Below, piece after piece: positions 2,561 through 55,414 of a stretch of 64,000 nucleotides of DNA (positions within the stretch are counted from its first letter, which is position 1; each line of letters opens with the position of its first letter). The position numbers and the translations under genes were made by a program. This DNA is from Escherichia coli (lineage in GTDB: Bacteria; Pseudomonadota; Gammaproteobacteria; Enterobacterales; Enterobacteriaceae). Below the pieces are notes generated by a model. The model was not told where the DNA came from, made no database searches, and saw nothing but the letters and a program-made list of their open reading frames with translations. The stretch lies in the NCBI RefSeq assembly GCF_036507355.1, contig NZ_AP027877.1; one strand, written 5' to 3'.

Positions 2561-3892
2561 TTACCCTAAATCCGCCATCAACACTTTGGATTTACGCTGG
2601 TAGTTGTACAACTGCTTTTTGCTCTCGGGCAGTAAATCAATATCCACTGGGGTAAATCCACGTTCCTGGAACCAGTGAATACTGCGCGTGGTCAGCACAA
2701 ACAATTTGCTTAAGCCGCTCTGCTTCGCCTGAGCGGCAATGCGTTCCAGCAGAACCTCGCCCCGTGATGAACTGCGGTAATCCGGGTGAACTGCCACACA
2801 GGCCATTTCCCCAATCTTCTCTTCCGGGAACGGATAGAGCGCGGCGCAGGCAATAGTCGTGTTATCGCGCTGAATAATGGTGAATTTGTCGATTTCCATC
2901 TCCAGCTGCTCGCGAGAACGGCGCACCAGAATACCTTGCTGCTCCAGCGGGCGAATCAACTCCAGAATACCGCCGATATCGTTGATTGTTGCGCGACGAA
3001 TCTGCTCGGCGCTTTCCATCACAATCTGCGTACCGATACCGTCGCGTGAGAACAACTCTTGCAACAGCGCGCCATCTTCCTGATAACTGATTAAATGACA
3101 GCGACGCACGCCGCTGCGGCAGGCTTTCACTGCGCCACGCAAAAAGCGCACCGTACCGGAGTTGTAATCGCCTTTCTCTTCCTGGGCTTCTACCCGCGCT
3201 TGCGCTTCGTTAGGGAAAAGTTCGGAGACAATATCACCGTCGTCATTAGTGACGCCTTGGGAAGAGCAAAAACCAATCATCTTTTCAGCTTTCAGTTTGA
3301 TGGCCAGTTGAGTGGCAATCTCTTCCGAGGTCAGGTTAAAGCTCTCGCCAGTGACTGAAACAGCGACCGGCCCCATTAGCACTATTGCACCGCTGTCCAG
3401 TTGACGATGGATCGCGTCTTCATCAATCCGCCGGATACGCCCGCTATGGCAGTAATCCACGCCGTCATCGACGCCCAGCGGCTGGGCAATAATAAAATTG
3501 CCACTGACGACGTTGATATGCGCGCCCTGTAGCGGCGTGTTATTGAGACTCATCGACAGGCGAGCAGTAATATCCAGTTGCAATGTTCCCGCAGCCTGCT
3601 TCACCAGTTCCAGTGTTTTGGCGTCGGTCACACGTATATTCTTGTGATACAGCGGTTCGTGGTGATGCGCAGCCAGATTTGCGTCGATCTGCGGACGTGC
3701 GCCATAGACCACCACCAGACGGATGCCGAGGCTGTGCAACAACCCGATATCATTAACGATACTGGAGAAATTCTCATGCTCAATGGCTTCACCGCCGAGC
3801 ATGATGACAAACGTTTTTCCCCGGTGGGTATTGATATAGGGAACCGAATGGCGGAATCCCTCGACCAGCTCGGTTTTACGTTCCTTTACCAC
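2561..3892 (-). CDS. argA: N-acetylglutamate synthase
   Basis: 443-aa product from GTG start (rc of 3890-3892) matching the ArgA N-terminus [12 protein letters not shown]; amino-acid kinase domain plus C-terminal GNAT domain; the six-frame ORF extends further upstream to 3958. Confidence 0.9.
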
Positions 3893-48371: not shown

Positions 48372-50024
<1,653 letters not shown>

Positions 50025-50096: not shown

Positions 50097-51410
<1,314 letters not shown>

Positions 51411-51430
51411 GACTGACTTAACGTCTTAAT

Positions 51431-51461
51431 AAAAAACCCGCTTCTTGAAGCGGGTTTTTTT
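51431..51461. terminator. Rho-independent terminator downstream of eno (bidirectional)
   Basis: AAAAAACCCGCTTC-ttga-GAAGCGGGTTTTTTT. Confidence 0.8.
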
Positions 51462-51465
51462 ATCT

Positions 51466-51828
51466 TCACATTTTGAGTTCAGTAAGCAGAGCGATAACAT
51501 TAATAAATGTTATTCCCACCAGGATAAGTATCCGAACAATTTTTCTGCTATTCCTTACATTGCTGACAAAATCATTATGAGAAATATTGGATGAATATTT
51601 TCGTTGATGGACTTTATAATCCCAAAGAAGATCATTTGCCTCAGGTATTGGGTTAATCAGACTGTAGATGCAAAAGTATACAAACGTATCTAAAGCAAGC
51701 AGTGATGTTATCAGTTGAAATAATTCATCGCCCTGGAAGGCTTTATTAAGCCAAATCATTCCAGCAGCACCGAATAAGCCAAATACAAATTTACTTAATC
51801 GCGGATGATTCGCTAAAATCTTACTCAT
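51466..51828 (-). CDS. Small hypothetical membrane protein (120 aa, 2-3 predicted TM helices), last gene of the LemA/TPM operon
   Basis: ORF with AGGGAAGG RBS 36 nt downstream of the TPM gene stop; very AT-rich (about 35% GC). Confidence 0.5.
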   Translation of the reverse strand: MSKILANHPRLSKFVFGLFGAAGMIWLNKAFQGDELFQLITSLLALDTFVYFCIYSLINPIPEANDLLWDYKVHQRKYSSNISHNDFVSNVRNSRKIVRILILVGITFINVIALLTELKM

Positions 51829-51863
51829 ATTTTCTTACCTTCCCTGTAATCTGTTTTTAAGTC

Positions 51864-52766
51864 TTACCATCTTCCTGACGCGCCGCCACCGCCGGATGAA
51901 CCGCCGCCACCGCTGAAATTGTCATTGTCGAAAGAGGATGAAGAGGAAGAAGACGATGACGAATGCCAGGAGGCCGAGTTGCTTCTTTCGTAGCGTGACG
52001 GTCGGTTTGCACTACGCATTGAATCACGCACCTTTCTGCCGAAAGGTGTGAAAGCGATAGCTACGACCAGGAATGGAGTGGCGAAACATAATAATGTGGC
52101 AAGAATTCCCCAGCTCCCGCTATATCCAGCGATGGGAAGTACAAAGGCCAGTATTATGGCAGCAAAGCAAATCACTCCCAGCGTTTTGATATATCCTCTG
52201 GCAGAAATAAACGTCAGTACTATCGCCCAGACTAACAGAGCCCACCAACCGCTAAAGGGTAAAGGATGATCGGGCGATGTATTATTGACTAAATCATTTC
52301 CTGATAGTCGGGTTTCAATATCACCAATACCTTGTTGCAAGCCGACAGCAAGGTCGCCCTTTTTAAACGCTGGAATAATACTGTTGCGTATAATTTGCCC
52401 GGACTGCGCATCCGTCAGAATACCCTCAAGTCCGTAGCCAATTTCAATATGTACTGTATGATCTTGCTAGGCAACTACCAGTAAAATACCGTCATCAAGA
52501 TTCTTATGACCGGGCTGCCAACGCTCGAATACCCGCGTTGCGTACTGCTCGATGGTTTCGTCGCCTGTTGTATCAACCACTAACACGACCAACTGTGCGT
52601 GTTTTTTTTGTGTCAGGGCTTTAATCTGGTTGGTCAGGGTGTTTACTTCGCTGTTTGTTAATGTGCCGGTTAAGTCATTCACATACTTGGGTGATTCAGG
52701 TACTGGAATTTGTGTGGCAAACACAGATGAACAGAAGAAAGCCGTAAGGAAGATAAAATTTCGCAT
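51864..52766 (-). pseudogene. ygcG: TPM-domain (YgcG-like) protein interrupted by an in-frame TAG at 52467-52469
   Basis: N-terminal ORF (signal peptide MRNFIFLTAFFCSSVFA plus start of TPM domain) and C-terminal ORF (TM segments plus Gly/Ser-rich tail) are in the same frame, separated only by the amber codon; sequence reads ...LLVVA-TAG-QDHTVHIEIGYGLEG... Confidence 0.75.
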
Positions 52767-52779
52767 AGAACTTCCCCGC

Positions 52780-53400
52780 TTAATGAGCATTAGCATTCTG
52801 GCTAAAATCTATTGTTGGGGCTTTACTTACTGCGGCGACATCATCCGGCAAATAATTTTTCTTTGGTGTGTAATCCATGACCTTTGCGGTTAATACAGCG
52901 GGGAATTTGCGGATAGTGACATTATATTGTTCAATGGCTTTAATATATCTTCCTCGCGCAACGGCAATTCTATTCTCACTTCCTTCGAGCTGTACCATTA
53001 AGTTTTGATAGAGCTCTTGAGCCTTTAACTCAGGGTAACGCTCACTAATTATCGTTAACTGACCGAGAGTGCGAGTCACCTGCGCCTGGGCCTGTTGCCA
53101 GGCTTGTAATTTTTGTGCATCTCCGGGAGCTTGCTGAAGATCGCTGCTGGCGCGATTAGCCTGGCTACGAGCCAATGTTACGGCTTCCAAAACGTCTTTT
53201 TCATGGTTGGAATAACCTTTAATACTGGCGACAAGATTAGGAATAAGATCGGCGCGACGTTGATATTGATTTAATACCTCAGACCAGGAGGCGTTAACCT
53301 GCTCATCATAGGTTTGAATATCGTTATATCCACAGCCTGATAAATTGAAAATAAATATAATTAAGATGAATATCCTGAGCATGTTTAAATCCTTTTTCAT
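52780..53400 (-). CDS. LemA-family protein (probable lipoprotein)
   Basis: 206-aa LemA-family ORF with N-terminal signal and lipobox LSGC; stop lies 13 nt upstream of the TPM gene start. Confidence 0.8.
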   Translation of the reverse strand: MKKDLNMLRIFILIIFIFNLSGCGYNDIQTYDEQVNASWSEVLNQYQRRADLIPNLVASIKGYSNHEKDVLEAVTLARSQANRASSDLQQAPGDAQKLQAWQQAQAQVTRTLGQLTIISERYPELKAQELYQNLMVQLEGSENRIAVARGRYIKAIEQYNVTIRKFPAVLTAKVMDYTPKKNYLPDDVAAVSKAPTIDFSQNANAH

Positions 53401-53554
53401 TAATTCCTTAAAACATAATACGCCGCTTCATTTTATTCTTTATGATCTAATGCACTTTTTGCCTTAAACCTGCCTGTAACAGAATGTTAATAAGACATGA
53501 TTGTTGCGGCAGGATCTGCAATAATTAACAATTATCCACTTCACAGAGAATGCT

Positions 53555-54226
53555 ATGCAGTACCCGATTAACGAGATGTTCCAGACCCTGCAAGGTGAGG
53601 GTTACTTTACCGGCGTCCCCGCCATTTTTATTCGTTTACAGGGATGCCCGGTTGGCTGTGCCTGGTGCGACACCAAACACACCTGGGAAAAGCTTGAGGA
53701 TCGGGAAGTCTCCCTTTTCAGCATTCTGGCGAAGACCAAAGAGAGTGATAAGTGGGGGGCGGCGAGCAGTGAAGACTTGTTGGCTGTCATTAGTCGCCAG
53801 GGATACACCGCGCGGCATGTGGTGATTACGGGTGGTGAGCCTTGCATTCATGATTTGCTACCACTGACTGATCTGCTCGAAAAGAACGGTTTTAGCTGCC
53901 AGATCGAGACCAGTGGTACTCATGAGGTACGCTGCACACCGAATACCTGGGTTACCGTATCGCCAAAGCTGAACATGCGCGGCGGCTATGAAGTGTTGTC
54001 ACAGGCACTGGAGCGAGCCAACGAAATCAAGCATCCAGTGGGGCGCGTACGCGATATTGAAGCACTGGATGAACTATTGGCAACGCTGACCGATGATAAA
54101 CCGCGAGTCATTGCACTGCAGCCGATTAGCCAAAAGGATGATGCCACACGATTGTGCATTGAAACCTGCATTGCGCGTAATTGGCGTTTGTCGATGCAAA
54201 CACATAAATATCTAAATATTGCCTGA
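53555..54226 (+). CDS. queE: 7-carboxy-7-deazaguanine synthase (radical SAM)
   Basis: 223-aa ORF with cysteine cluster CPVGCAWCDTKHTW. Confidence 0.9.
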   Translation: MQYPINEMFQTLQGEGYFTGVPAIFIRLQGCPVGCAWCDTKHTWEKLEDREVSLFSILAKTKESDKWGAASSEDLLAVISRQGYTARHVVITGGEPCIHDLLPLTDLLEKNGFSCQIETSGTHEVRCTPNTWVTVSPKLNMRGGYEVLSQALERANEIKHPVGRVRDIEALDELLATLTDDKPRVIALQPISQKDDATRLCIETCIARNWRLSMQTHKYLNIA

Positions 54227-54565: not shown

Positions 54566-54777
54566 GAGTTCCCCGCGCCAGCGGGGATAAACCGGAGAGA
54601 GTCCAGTATCAATCCCGCGATCCGCAGAGTTCCCCGCGCCAGCGGGGATAAACCGCCGTTGCGGATCTTGAGTAGTGCCACGTCACCGAGTTCCCCGCGC
54701 CAGCGGGGATAAACCGGGTACAAAAGAGGCCCCATTCTGGCAGGGCTCGAGTTCCCCGCGCCAGCGGGGATAAACCA
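54566..54777 (+). CRISPR. Type I-E CRISPR array: 4 repeats of 29 bp, 3 spacers of 32 bp
   Basis: Repeats GAGTTCCCCGCGCCAGCGGGGATAAACCG at 54566, 54627, 54688 and 54749 (last ends in A); spacers GAGAGAGTCCAGTATCAATCCCGCGATCCGCA, CCGTTGCGGATCTTGAGTAGTGCCACGTCACC, GGTACAAAAGAGGCCCCATTCTGGCAGGGCTC. Confidence 0.95.
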
Positions 54778-55241: not shown

Positions 55242-55368
55242 AAAAACAGGGATAAACCGAACTAGTTAAAGTTTTTATTATGTTCCCTGCATCAGCGGGG
55301 ATAAACCGGACTTGTTATCATTTTTTAAGTTGTCGAACTTATGTTCCCCGCGCCAGCGGGGATAACCA
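55242..55368 (+). CRISPR. Degenerate type I-E CRISPR array remnant: 2 decayed repeats plus a partial repeat, 1 full-length spacer
   Basis: Partial repeat ...CAGGGATAAACCG ending 55259; ATGTTCCCTGCATCAGCGGGGATAAACCG (55280-55308); 32-bp spacer GACTTGTTATCATTTTTTAAGTTGTCGAACTT; ATGTTCCCCGCGCCAGCGGGGATAACCA (55341-55368). Confidence 0.8.
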
Positions 55369-55414
55369 TTCAGGTATGTTCAGGCCGGGCAGTTTCCCGC
55401 CCGGTTTTCCTCAC

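Follow-up and report, generated by a model that had tools for sequence, protein, structure and literature searches.

Three genes lie in the same orientation on the minus strand between eno and queE in the window, by which we mean the whole stretch of 64,000 nucleotides of Escherichia coli DNA that was analysed. They are lemA (52780 to 53400), coding for a LemA-family lipoprotein of 206 amino acids, a YgcG-type TPM gene of 300 codons (51864 to 52766), which is inactivated by a nonsense codon, and orf120 (51466 to 51828), predicted to code for a small inner-membrane protein of 120 amino acids with three transmembrane helices. The open reading frames agree with the three minus-strand genes listed in a first-pass annotation of this DNA. 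The gap of 13 nt between lemA and the TPM gene was also as given there, while the gap between the TPM gene and orf120 measured 35 nt instead of 36 nt. The flanks had been described as two highly expressed core genes; they are eno and queE, and nothing was found that supports a high expression of queE. The GC content of the whole span from lemA to orf120 was 42.9% compared to 50.3% for the window, with 34.7% for orf120, 47.2% for the TPM gene and 41.9% for lemA. A marked AT-richness of the segment (about 35 to 42% GC), as claimed initially, is therefore limited to orf120 and the region upstream of lemA (33.8% GC).

The co-orientation, the short gaps and a sole strong hairpin terminator 3' of orf120 are in keeping with an operon. 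The bidirectional intrinsic terminator (51428 to 51464, both strands) is located between eno and orf120, whose stop codons lie on either side of it, and is common to eno and the operon. Its GC-rich stem CCCGCTT/AAGCGGG is bordered on both strands by runs of A and T, and the RNA folds yielded -17.9 kcal/mol (z -4.7) for one strand and -20.9 kcal/mol (z -6.0) for the other. A simple terminator scan had omitted this hairpin; the terminator was confirmed by RNA folding. Between 51000 and 55500, no match to an Rfam family attained the gathering score. A CRISPR array is situated about 1.2 kb from the three genes. The earlier interpretation is partly supported: as a description of this type of locus, a LemA-TPM-small membrane protein operon that specifies an uncharacterised envelope module holds.

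The divergent intergenic region between queE and lemA (53401 to 53554) is the presumed promoter region of the operon. A sigma-70 scan gave no convincing promoter site upstream of lemA. Alignment with K-12 and O157 demonstrated homology of the region to the one between queE and yqcG in K-12; in K-12, phosphorylated PhoP binds the 300-bp stretch upstream of queE (PMC4974570). A pattern scan for PhoP boxes with one mismatch allowed detected no site between queE and lemA, nor were such sites enriched in the window. By eye, only a perfect half-site GGTTTA is visible upstream of lemA beside a degenerate one, and we do not claim a PhoP site.

Products of the three genes

LemA matched the Pfam family PF04011 along the entire profile (positions 1 to 149 of 149) with an E value of 9.4e-49 and 165.5 bits at a gathering cut-off of 26.2. 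Homology to PDB 2etd_A ('lemA protein', TM0961 of Thermotoga maritima) extended across the helical bundle (phmmer E 4.2e-32, residues 28-184). The hydropathy profile displayed a single N-terminal hydrophobic segment of residues 4-26 with the lipobox LSGC, and the part beyond the signal peptide is predicted to form a periplasmic four-helix-bundle domain. The profile match and the lipobox corroborate the earlier assignment as a LemA-family lipoprotein. LemA of the window shares the N-terminal membrane anchor of the family, yet uses a lipoprotein signal peptide and not a transmembrane helix for this purpose. An alternative start at 53382 would result in a form of 200 amino acids, as called by PGAP in a related strain; the identical E. 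coli protein is BED21162.1. A distant relative within the LemA family is the magnetosome protein MamQ. An identity of the window protein with MamQ was rejected, with 86.8 bits against the equivalog NF040966 of NCBIfam at a cut-off of 250, i.e. the two are related but not the same.

The TPM gene with its stop codon masked matched PF04536 with an E value of 2.9e-38 and 131.1 bits at a gathering score of 22.1. Matches in the PDB were 7tbr (E 4.6e-21), 2kw7 and 5anp (BA41), with E values ranging from 5e-21 to 5e-18. The encoded architecture consists of a signal peptide, a predicted periplasmic TPM domain (about residues 23-167), three transmembrane helices (about 168-243) and a predicted cytoplasmic Ser/Gly-rich tail ending GGGGSSGGGGASGRW. 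The reading frame thus has the make-up of a YgcG-type protein, namely signal peptide, TPM domain, transmembrane region and a Gly-rich tail with GGGGASG-x-W; it also contains the motifs NDLTG and IEIGYGLEG. Signal peptide, TPM domain and membrane region are shared with the YgcG/TPM family (PF04536, COG1512), and the C-terminal GGGGSSGGGGASGRW tail is invariant in the window frame, in YgcG of K-12 and in all paralogues seen. On the other hand, YgcG of K-12 is only 46% identical over the TPM domain, and the window gene is interrupted by an amber codon. Further members of the family are Psb32/TLP18.3, CcoZ of Campylobacter jejuni and BA41/BA42 of Bizionia. An assignment as Psb32 (NCBIfam equivalog NF047379) was dismissed, because the close intact allele of strain GPEC548 reached 36.7 bits at a cut-off of 160.

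The first-pass annotation correctly noticed the TPM domain, but overlooked that the gene is not intact. An in-frame TAG at codon 100 (52467 to 52469, minus strand), where relatives have TGG for Trp100, splits the frame into an N-terminal fragment of 99 or 109 amino acids and an untranslated remainder. The TPM domain is truncated before the IEIGYGLEG motif, and the entire membrane region and the tail are lost. Strain GPEC548 carries TGG at this position. In 340 E. coli genomes with the window TPM allele the 61 nt around the stop were identical at 60 of 61 positions, and not one of the 340 was an exact match. The same protein sequence with Trp100 intact is deposited as 'YgcG family protein [E. 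coli]' (HBN7513642.1), and this occurrence elsewhere argues for a pseudogene that arose recently and in one step. Judged by these comparisons, the TPM gene of this strain is a recent pseudogene due to the single-base nonsense mutation TGG to TAG, which is private to the lineage. A sequencing error is an unlikely source of the TAG, because the 99-amino-acid fragment (BED21161.1) recurs, albeit on only four contigs in NCBI, Logan and ENA that may all stem from one strain. The mutation probably renders the module of this strain non-functional or cuts it down to LemA and the small protein.

No match of orf120 was detected in Pfam, NCBIfam or PADLOC, in agreement with the earlier statement that the third gene lacks a recognisable domain. 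The three transmembrane helices were predicted from the hydropathy profile and the loop charges. An AF2 model was all-helical with a moderate pLDDT of 73, and a Foldseek search of the PDB with this model returned nothing below an E value of 0.8 and generic three-helix membrane subunits only. A word-indexed search found near-identical E. coli sequences exclusively, as if orf120 were an orphan. This notion was abandoned when exhaustive HMMER and profile searches identified homologues in Klebsiella (44-49% identity), Salmonella (about 30%) and one further assembly (records P0010, P0012, P0164, P0165 and P0166). The family is without a name, its members so far are confined to the Enterobacteriaceae, and its invariant residues include C53, Y55, L57-I58, P62 and R95-K96. 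A dN/dS of 0.10-0.18 in the Klebsiella group indicates purifying selection; the value within E. coli of about 0.27 is derived from two non-synonymous and two synonymous changes only. A lack of conservation, considered initially as a possible fate of the 120-amino-acid reading frame, is contradicted by the homologues in Klebsiella and Salmonella and by the purifying selection. On this comparative evidence orf120 is a real gene without a known domain, and it is conserved in three genera.

We also rejected the idea that orf120 is an AgrB-like peptidase (PF04647). Three of eight family members matched the profile, all of them below threshold with a best E value of 1.6e-4. The weak matches came from Klebsiella members only, e.g. 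19.4 bits for that of Klebsiella oxytoca with a threshold of 23, while E. coli orf120 did not match PF04647 at all. An hhalign comparison with an AgrB sequence gave a probability of 0.1%.

The locus within E. coli and in other genera

In O157:H7 the TPM gene has an independent in-frame TGA at codon 225 (L225opal), and the resulting form of 224 amino acids is present on at least 1000 contigs. Several forms of 208-247 amino acids exist on complete E. coli chromosomes, and one match at the locus has an IS1-family transposase among its underlying features. Intact alleles of 297-301 amino acids are common, with one 301-amino-acid sequence on at least 1000 contigs, and LemA of O157 is 95% identical to that of the window. 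The lemA-tpm junction segment is kept in 1436 of 5426 complete E. coli genomes (about 26%). Genomes of the K-12 type possess a lemA remnant of 46 amino acids (yqcG, corresponding to the lemA 5' end) together with one TPM paralogue, ygcG. The pair yqcG-ygcG (b4682-b2778) occupies the same chromosomal slot with the same upstream region shared with queE, and YqcG has a hydrophobic segment that aligns collinearly and in frame with the signal peptide of the window LemA. Whereas lemA is full-length in the window, K-12 has lost nearly all of it as well as the first TPM gene and has no orf120. Going by these alignments, yqcG of K-12 is what is left of the 5' end of lemA, preceded by the same upstream region. 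RefSeq names its product 'cell envelope stress response protein', and YqcG of K-12 is reported to be stress-induced. Comparison of these sequences shows that within E. coli the locus is highly polymorphic and in decay. Because the module was repeatedly lost or broken, its function is dispensable in this species. Both this decay and the persistence of the small gene without LemA and TPM in Salmonella had escaped the first-pass annotation.

Five LemA homologues with 50-81% identity were sampled from Klebsiella, Brenneria, Burkholderia, Pseudomonas and Leptospiraceae, where they reside in differing genomic contexts. A TPM gene adjoins lemA in all five, and each LemA partner carries a lipobox. The same adjacency was observed in five further genomes of the genus Escherichia and in Entomohabitans, so the earlier claim that LemA/TPM pairs recur across bacteria was upheld, and the pair is conserved across phyla. 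Membrane-anchored TPM partners beside LemA end GGGG-x-x-GGGGASG-x-W from Leptospiraceae to Pseudomonas, and the GGGGASG-x-W tail is likewise found in YgcG of K-12 and in the O157 paralogues. Distant LemA proteins with 28-33% identity adjoin other genes, e.g. those for an M48 peptidase, an alpha/beta hydrolase and SpoIIM.

A close counterpart, LemA-TPM-X261-(TPM)-orf130 of the Klebsiella oxytoca group, is located in the same slot between queE and eno as the operon of the window. Identities are 81% for LemA, 52-54% for TPM and 44-49% for the small terminal membrane protein. In contrast to the window, the Klebsiella operons carry one or two extra YgcG-type paralogues between the TPM gene and the small gene, one of which is devoid of a TPM domain. 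Two architectures exist, LemA-TPM-X261-orf130 and LemA-TPM-X268-TPM-orf137, both with the orf120-family gene in last position after a gap of 24-29 nt. X261 has lost the TPM domain and kept the signal peptide, the membrane region and the invariant tail, a pattern that marks the membrane region together with the tail as a probable conserved functional core. The homologue of orf120 in Salmonella enterica, a protein of 136 amino acids, stands alone between queE and eno with gaps of about 300 nt on both sides and neither LemA nor TPM beside it. Conversely, LemA and TPM paralogues without orf120 are present in E. albertii, E. whittamii, two further Escherichia species, one E. coli strain and Entomohabitans. 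Thus, the third gene is not an obligatory partner of the other two. The position of the operon in one slot across Escherichia, Klebsiella and Entomohabitans indicates vertical inheritance.

Proposed role and rival explanations

We lean towards the view that the locus represents, in E. coli, an envelope operon of the queE-eno slot that is passed on vertically among enterobacteria, and in which the TPM protein would act as an assembly factor and LemA as a scaffold upon induction by stress. The likeliest role, deduced by analogy, would be to assemble or maintain membrane complexes when the envelope is stressed. The three genes would be transcribed together from the AT-rich stretch that they share with queE. 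LemA would be a lipoprotein with its four-helix bundle facing the periplasm, where it may serve at the membrane as a scaffold or as a partner in remodelling; the four-helix bundles formed by LemA-like domains have been implicated in membrane remodelling and scaffolding (10.64898/2026.07.15.738315). The TPM protein would place its TPM domain in the periplasm, span the inner membrane with three helices and expose the glycine-rich tail to the cytoplasm. By analogy to distant TPM proteins for which this has been put forward, among them Psb32/TLP18.3 and CcoZ, the domain may act outside the cytoplasm as a factor that assembles or maintains membrane-protein complexes. An assembly of membrane-linked complexes has been proposed for TPM domains, with a phosphatase role regarded as unlikely (10.1101/2020.09.24.301986; 10.1101/2025.01.14.632903), and CcoZ of C. 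jejuni is needed for normal activity of the cbb3 oxidase (PMC8267372). The product of orf120 would join as a small inner-membrane protein with three helices. Envelope stress may switch the module on. In Flavobacterium, mutation of sppA led to up-regulation of lemA and of a TPM gene, which the authors read as a membrane-homeostasis and stress response (PMC13236525).

The TPM protein could instead work in the periplasm as a phosphatase or nucleotidase, and the operon would then be an enzyme system for phosphorylated substrates of the envelope or periplasm. The Pfam name TPM_phosphatase, the motifs NDLTG and IEIGYGLEG and reports on other TPM proteins speak for this: plant TLP18.3 reportedly is an acid phosphatase, and BA41 reportedly has ATPase/ADPase activity. 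The literature is divided, however, as the two recent domain analyses judge such a role unlikely and favour complex assembly, and X261 of Klebsiella does without the TPM domain while it retains signal peptide, membrane region and tail. We consider an enzymatic function quite improbable. An acquisition of the AT-rich segment by horizontal transfer, e.g. as a cassette for defence against phages beside the CRISPR array, would fit the GC content below that of the surroundings, the varying content among strains and the nearby array. Yet five proteins (LemA, TPM, orf120 and the O157 paralogues) had no match in PADLOC-DB 2.0 at E <= 0.01, no orf120 homologue was present in 72,556 plasmids and 50,697 phages, the operon sits in the identical slot in Escherichia, Klebsiella and Entomohabitans, and neither integrase, tRNA nor repeat boundaries were seen at the locus. 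Hence we give the island hardly any credence.

Two other explanations appear rather doubtful to us, while deserving more weight than an enzyme or an island. In the first, orf120 would occupy the queE-eno slot independently; it would lie beside LemA and TPM only because of shared synteny and play no functional part in the module. The solitary homologue of Salmonella enterica and the Escherichia species, the E. coli strain and Entomohabitans with LemA and TPM but no orf120 are in line with this. Moreover, all known members of the orf120 family occur in one chromosomal slot, so their adjacency is not independent evidence of a coupling. Against it stand the tight, co-oriented packing of the Klebsiella homologue at the 3' end of two operon architectures and, in E. 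coli, the short distance to the TPM gene and the sole terminator shared. In the second, the whole locus might be a decaying and effectively neutral remnant without a selected function in E. coli. The independent lesions, i.e. W100amber in the window, the TGA at codon 225 of O157:H7, the shortened forms and the IS1-family transposase, the reduced gene set of K-12-type genomes and the limited distribution of the lemA-tpm junction would all be explained. What weakens this is that intact alleles of the TPM gene are common, that LemA hardly differs between O157 and the window and that the dN/dS of orf120 within E. coli is about 0.27, a value from four changes only.

Returning to the envelope operon, the argument may be extended to a proposal that we consider unlikely in its entirety. 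The orf120 family would then provide the LemA/YgcG-type TPM modules of enterobacteria with a small inner-membrane subunit that has not been described before; these modules would be regulated by envelope stress, possibly via PhoPQ, and assemble or repair membrane complexes. YqcG, the small stress-induced protein of K-12, would be a fossil LemA signal peptide that is still expressed from a stress-responsive promoter of the operon, and the invariant, cytoplasmic GGGGSSGGGGASGRW tail would be a conserved signalling or interaction element.

The LemA family and the YgcG family are already known, the latter also as the GenBank name of the intact TPM allele, and LemA with a YgcG-type TPM protein is a widely conserved bacterial pair, to which the locus brings no new mechanism. 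As to annotation, the TPM gene of this strain is to be marked as a pseudogene and the 120-amino-acid reading frame as a real conserved gene. E. coli offers natural alleles, set apart by one lesion each, as handles on the pair: W100amber in this strain, L225opal in O157, and intact alleles with no difference other than the stop. The small membrane protein, which is conserved yet unannotated, accompanies the operon in two genera. Finally, YqcG as a remnant of lemA links the yqcG data of K-12 and the PhoP-bound region upstream of queE to the lemA promoter.

Layout of the locus and the interrupted tpm gene

The window comes from an E. coli chromosome. The three genes lie on the minus strand between two plus-strand neighbours, eno (50112-51410, preceded by pyrG at 48387-50024, plus strand) and queE (53555-54226). 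They are lemA (52780-53400; 206 aa; PF04011, 9.4e-49), tpm (51864-52766; a 300-codon reading frame; PF04536, 2.9e-38) and orf120 (51466-51828; 120 aa; no Pfam or NCBIfam family match), separated by 13 and then 35 nt; the positions of the three ORFs in the first-pass annotation agreed exactly with those found here. Between queE and ygcE, the last gene in this order, is a small type I-E CRISPR array (54566-54777) with four repeats and three spacers, and repeat-like translations near 55280-55400 suggest more degenerate repeats. eno and orf120 converge on a strong, bidirectional terminator hairpin that lies between their stop codons (-17.9 kcal/mol, z -4.7, on one strand; -20.9 kcal/mol, z -6.0, on the other); no comparable terminator was found between lemA, tpm and orf120. 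The AT-richness noted earlier holds in that the segment is below the 50.3% GC of the window, yet it is uneven with 34.7% in orf120, 47.2% in the tpm frame, 41.9% in lemA and 33.8% in the lemA-queE spacer.

The only hydrophobic segment of LemA is N-terminal and closes with the lipobox L-S-G-C; the remaining sequence is homologous to 2ETD, a LemA protein of solved structure (4e-32), and LemA is predicted to be a lipoprotein facing the periplasm. The tpm frame encodes a signal peptide, the TPM domain (nearest PDB entries 7tbr, 2kw7 and 5anp), three transmembrane helices and a basic, Ser- and Gly-rich tail with the C-terminal end GGGGSSGGGGASGRW. Because of the odd number of helices and its positive charge we infer that the tail sits in the cytoplasm.

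The PF04536 match bears out the assignment of tpm as a TPM gene, but it had been overlooked that the frame is broken by an in-frame TAG at codon 100 (52467-52469; LLVVA*QDHTVHIEIGYGLEG). Behind this stop lie the final third of the TPM domain, the three transmembrane helices and the tail, all of which are lost. E. coli GPEC548 has TGG at codon 100. All 340 complete E. coli genomes with the allele were identical to the window at 60 of the 61 nt centred on this codon, and none matched it exactly. The 99-aa product is GenBank BED21161.1 ('hypothetical protein VEE46_09290', E. coli, 4.64-Mb contig) and occurs in four contigs only; its intact counterpart with Trp100 and otherwise the same 300 aa ('YgcG family protein [E. 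coli]') is found in six. Taken together the comparison identifies the amber codon as a recent, one-nucleotide, lineage-private nonsense mutation and not a shared feature. A sequencing error is probably not its source.

Variation of the queE-eno slot in Escherichia

The slot is highly polymorphic across Escherichia. LemA is followed by three YgcG-type paralogues in E. albertii and E. whittamii, by two in two further Escherichia species and Entomohabitans, and by a different set of three in one E. coli. O157:H7 carries LemA, TPM1 (the counterpart of tpm) and paralogues of 382 and 304 aa. The LemA-TPM1-orf120 arrangement of the window is present in 339-340 of 5426 complete E. coli genomes (~6%), and the lemA-tpm1 junction segment is kept in 1436 of them (~26%). 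Within the window tpm the first ~250 nt (52530-52780) resemble the O157-type allele and are far less GPEC548-like than the near-identical flanks, which indicates a recombination mosaic within the gene.

TPM1 of O157:H7 is interrupted independently, by a TGA in frame at codon 225 (strain 7409, locus L002, ~2717-2719; gene at 2720-3394, minus strand). The 75 codons beyond it are in frame and conserved including the GGGGSSGGGGASGRW tail, and the 224-aa form occurs in at least 1000 contigs. In E. coli tpm has been inactivated repeatedly and independently, a modestly new pattern. In GPEC548 (L001 2965-3870) PGAP labels tpm an incomplete pseudogene, 'missing C-terminus', despite an intact 301-codon frame; this label is probably an annotation artefact from the low-complexity tail.

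Only the queE-proximal 213 nt are left in the sampled K-12-type genomes. Homology of K-12 to the window spans queE, the spacer and ~80 nt of lemA, with divergence beyond. Alignment of K-12 yqcG (L003 3428-3568) with window 53320-53560 showed that YqcG (46 aa) uses an upstream ATG and that a 1-nt deletion puts the former LemA signal peptide in frame; the IIFIF motif is kept and the lipobox Cys lost. ygcG follows directly, and the K-12 yqcG-ygcG pair is thus what remains of a lemA-tpm operon. That yqcG is a fossil of lemA is a modestly new point.

LemA-TPM pairing and the orf120 family

The claim that LemA/TPM pairs recur across bacteria was upheld: a TPM gene adjoins lemA in all five sampled LemA homologues of 50-81% identity, each with a lipobox. 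The pair occupies the same slot as in the window in Klebsiella, is divergently oriented in Brenneria, adjacent in Pseudomonas, arranged as LemA-TPM-TPM in a Leptospiraceae MAG, and placed between tssG and tssJ of a type VI secretion cluster in Burkholderia (L024 3882-5615; tssF, tssG, TPM, LemA, tssJ/SciN). Remoter LemAs of Bacillota, Bacteroidaceae and Woesearchaeota (28-33% identity) have different neighbours, e.g. an M48 peptidase, an alpha/beta hydrolase or a SpoIIM-like protein. Pairing with TPM is thus a trait of the window's LemA subfamily, not of every LemA. In a Bacteroidaceae MAG (L012 221-1779) a LemA of 33% identity is followed at once by an M48 (HtpX-like) peptidase and no TPM, a further link of LemA to membrane-protein quality control.

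The membrane-anchored TPM partners adjoining the sampled LemAs end in GGGG-x-x-GGGGASG-x-W. All YgcG-type proteins seen carry GGGG-[ST]-[SF]-GGGGASG-[RSD]-W at the extreme C-terminus (window 51864-51910; loci L002, L003, L009 and L022-L030), kept from Leptospiraceae to Enterobacteriaceae even among paralogues of 35% identity; no described role for this Gly-rich tail was found. A Klebsiella paralogue of 251-268 aa without Pfam match (L027 4191-4976; L029 1756-2562; L022 6534-7322) has lost the TPM domain, yet kept signal peptide, membrane region and the invariant tail; it corresponds to the 382-aa TPM protein of O157.

An initial search with orf120 returned near-identical E. coli sequences only. 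Homologues of 129 aa (46% identity), 130-137 aa in the Klebsiella oxytoca group (44-49%) and 136 aa in Salmonella enterica (~30%) came to light when HMMER was run exhaustively over 1.84 billion representatives and a profile search was added, which rules out an E. coli orphan; the 120-aa ORF, in the first-pass annotation a small gene without recognizable domain, passed the check for conservation. Common to the family are three hydrophobic stretches and a set of invariant positions, among them Cys53, Y55, L57-I58, P62 and R95-K96. At dS 0.33-0.84 dN/dS within the Klebsiella group was 0.10-0.18, which demonstrates that the gene codes for a protein and is subject to purifying selection. A conserved, unnamed small membrane protein family is, modestly, new here. 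A degraded copy without start codon and with a frameshift near the 3' end, absent from the gene caller's output, lies in a Klebsiella sp. (L022 7362-7655).

An N-in topology is suggested for orf120 by its basic N-terminus and by the loop of 35 residues, also basic, that joins the second and third of its three hydrophobic helices. An AlphaFold2 model from the eight-sequence family alignment was all-helical with moderate confidence (pLDDT 73, pTM 0.57) and had no significant match among PDB structures.

A possible role in membrane-complex maintenance

We favor, with modest confidence and by analogy, a stress-induced, periplasm-facing module that would assemble or maintain membrane complexes, with the TPM protein as inner-membrane component, LemA as lipoprotein partner and orf120 as lineage-specific membrane accessory. 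TPM proteins have a link to PspA operons, and Psb32/TLP18.3 takes part in the repair of photosystem II; TPM domains have been argued to be non-phosphatases that assist assembly of membrane-linked complexes (10.1101/2020.09.24.301986; 10.1101/2025.01.14.632903), which makes an enzymatic, phosphatase role of the TPM protein improbable. Normal activity of the Campylobacter cbb3 oxidase needs the TPM protein CcoZ, likened to a subunit of the mycobacterial respiratory supercomplex (PMC8267372). Domains of the LemA type form four-helix bundles; they have been connected with membrane remodelling (MamQ) and are predicted to serve as scaffolds for membrane enzymes (10.64898/2026.07.15.738315). An sppA mutant of Flavobacterium showed induction of both lemA and a TPM gene, read by the authors as a membrane-homeostasis and stress response (PMC13236525). 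The window shares the region upstream of queE to which phosphorylated PhoP binds (PMC4974570), and RefSeq names K-12 YqcG 'cell envelope stress response protein'.

Whether orf120 belongs to this module was judged from its neighbourhood. In Klebsiella its homologue closes the co-oriented operon in the same queE-eno slot (LemA-TPM-X261-orf130, spaced by 14, 25 and 24 nt, or LemA-TPM-X268-TPM-orf137, by 14, 25, 31 and 29 nt; X261 and X268 are extra YgcG-type paralogues). Every family member occupies this one chromosomal slot, however, so their being neighbours cannot count as independent support for a functional link. In Salmonella the homologue stands alone between queE and eno without LemA or TPM, which shows that orf120 is able to persist on its own and favors its being a mere neighbour of the module, a reading we consider possible but rather unlikely. 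Neutral decay of the locus in E. coli is likewise possible but rather unlikely. A defence-island or mobile-element origin was unsupported by defence, plasmid and phage searches.

Directly after the stop of the Salmonella homologue, between it and eno, lies a type I-E CRISPR repeat, solitary and degenerate (L017 6428-6456; CGGTTTATCCCCGTTCACGCGGGGAACAC); on the opposite side of queE is a variable gene-free gap of ~1.6-4.2 kb, which we take to be the CRISPR array.

What was noted earlier is thus real, if incompletely described, and its interpretation was broadly right. As a LemA/YgcG-TPM locus this one is normal and had already been annotated, but it has a broken central gene; in the window strain the module would be disabled by the tpm amber codon, with a possible polar effect on orf120.
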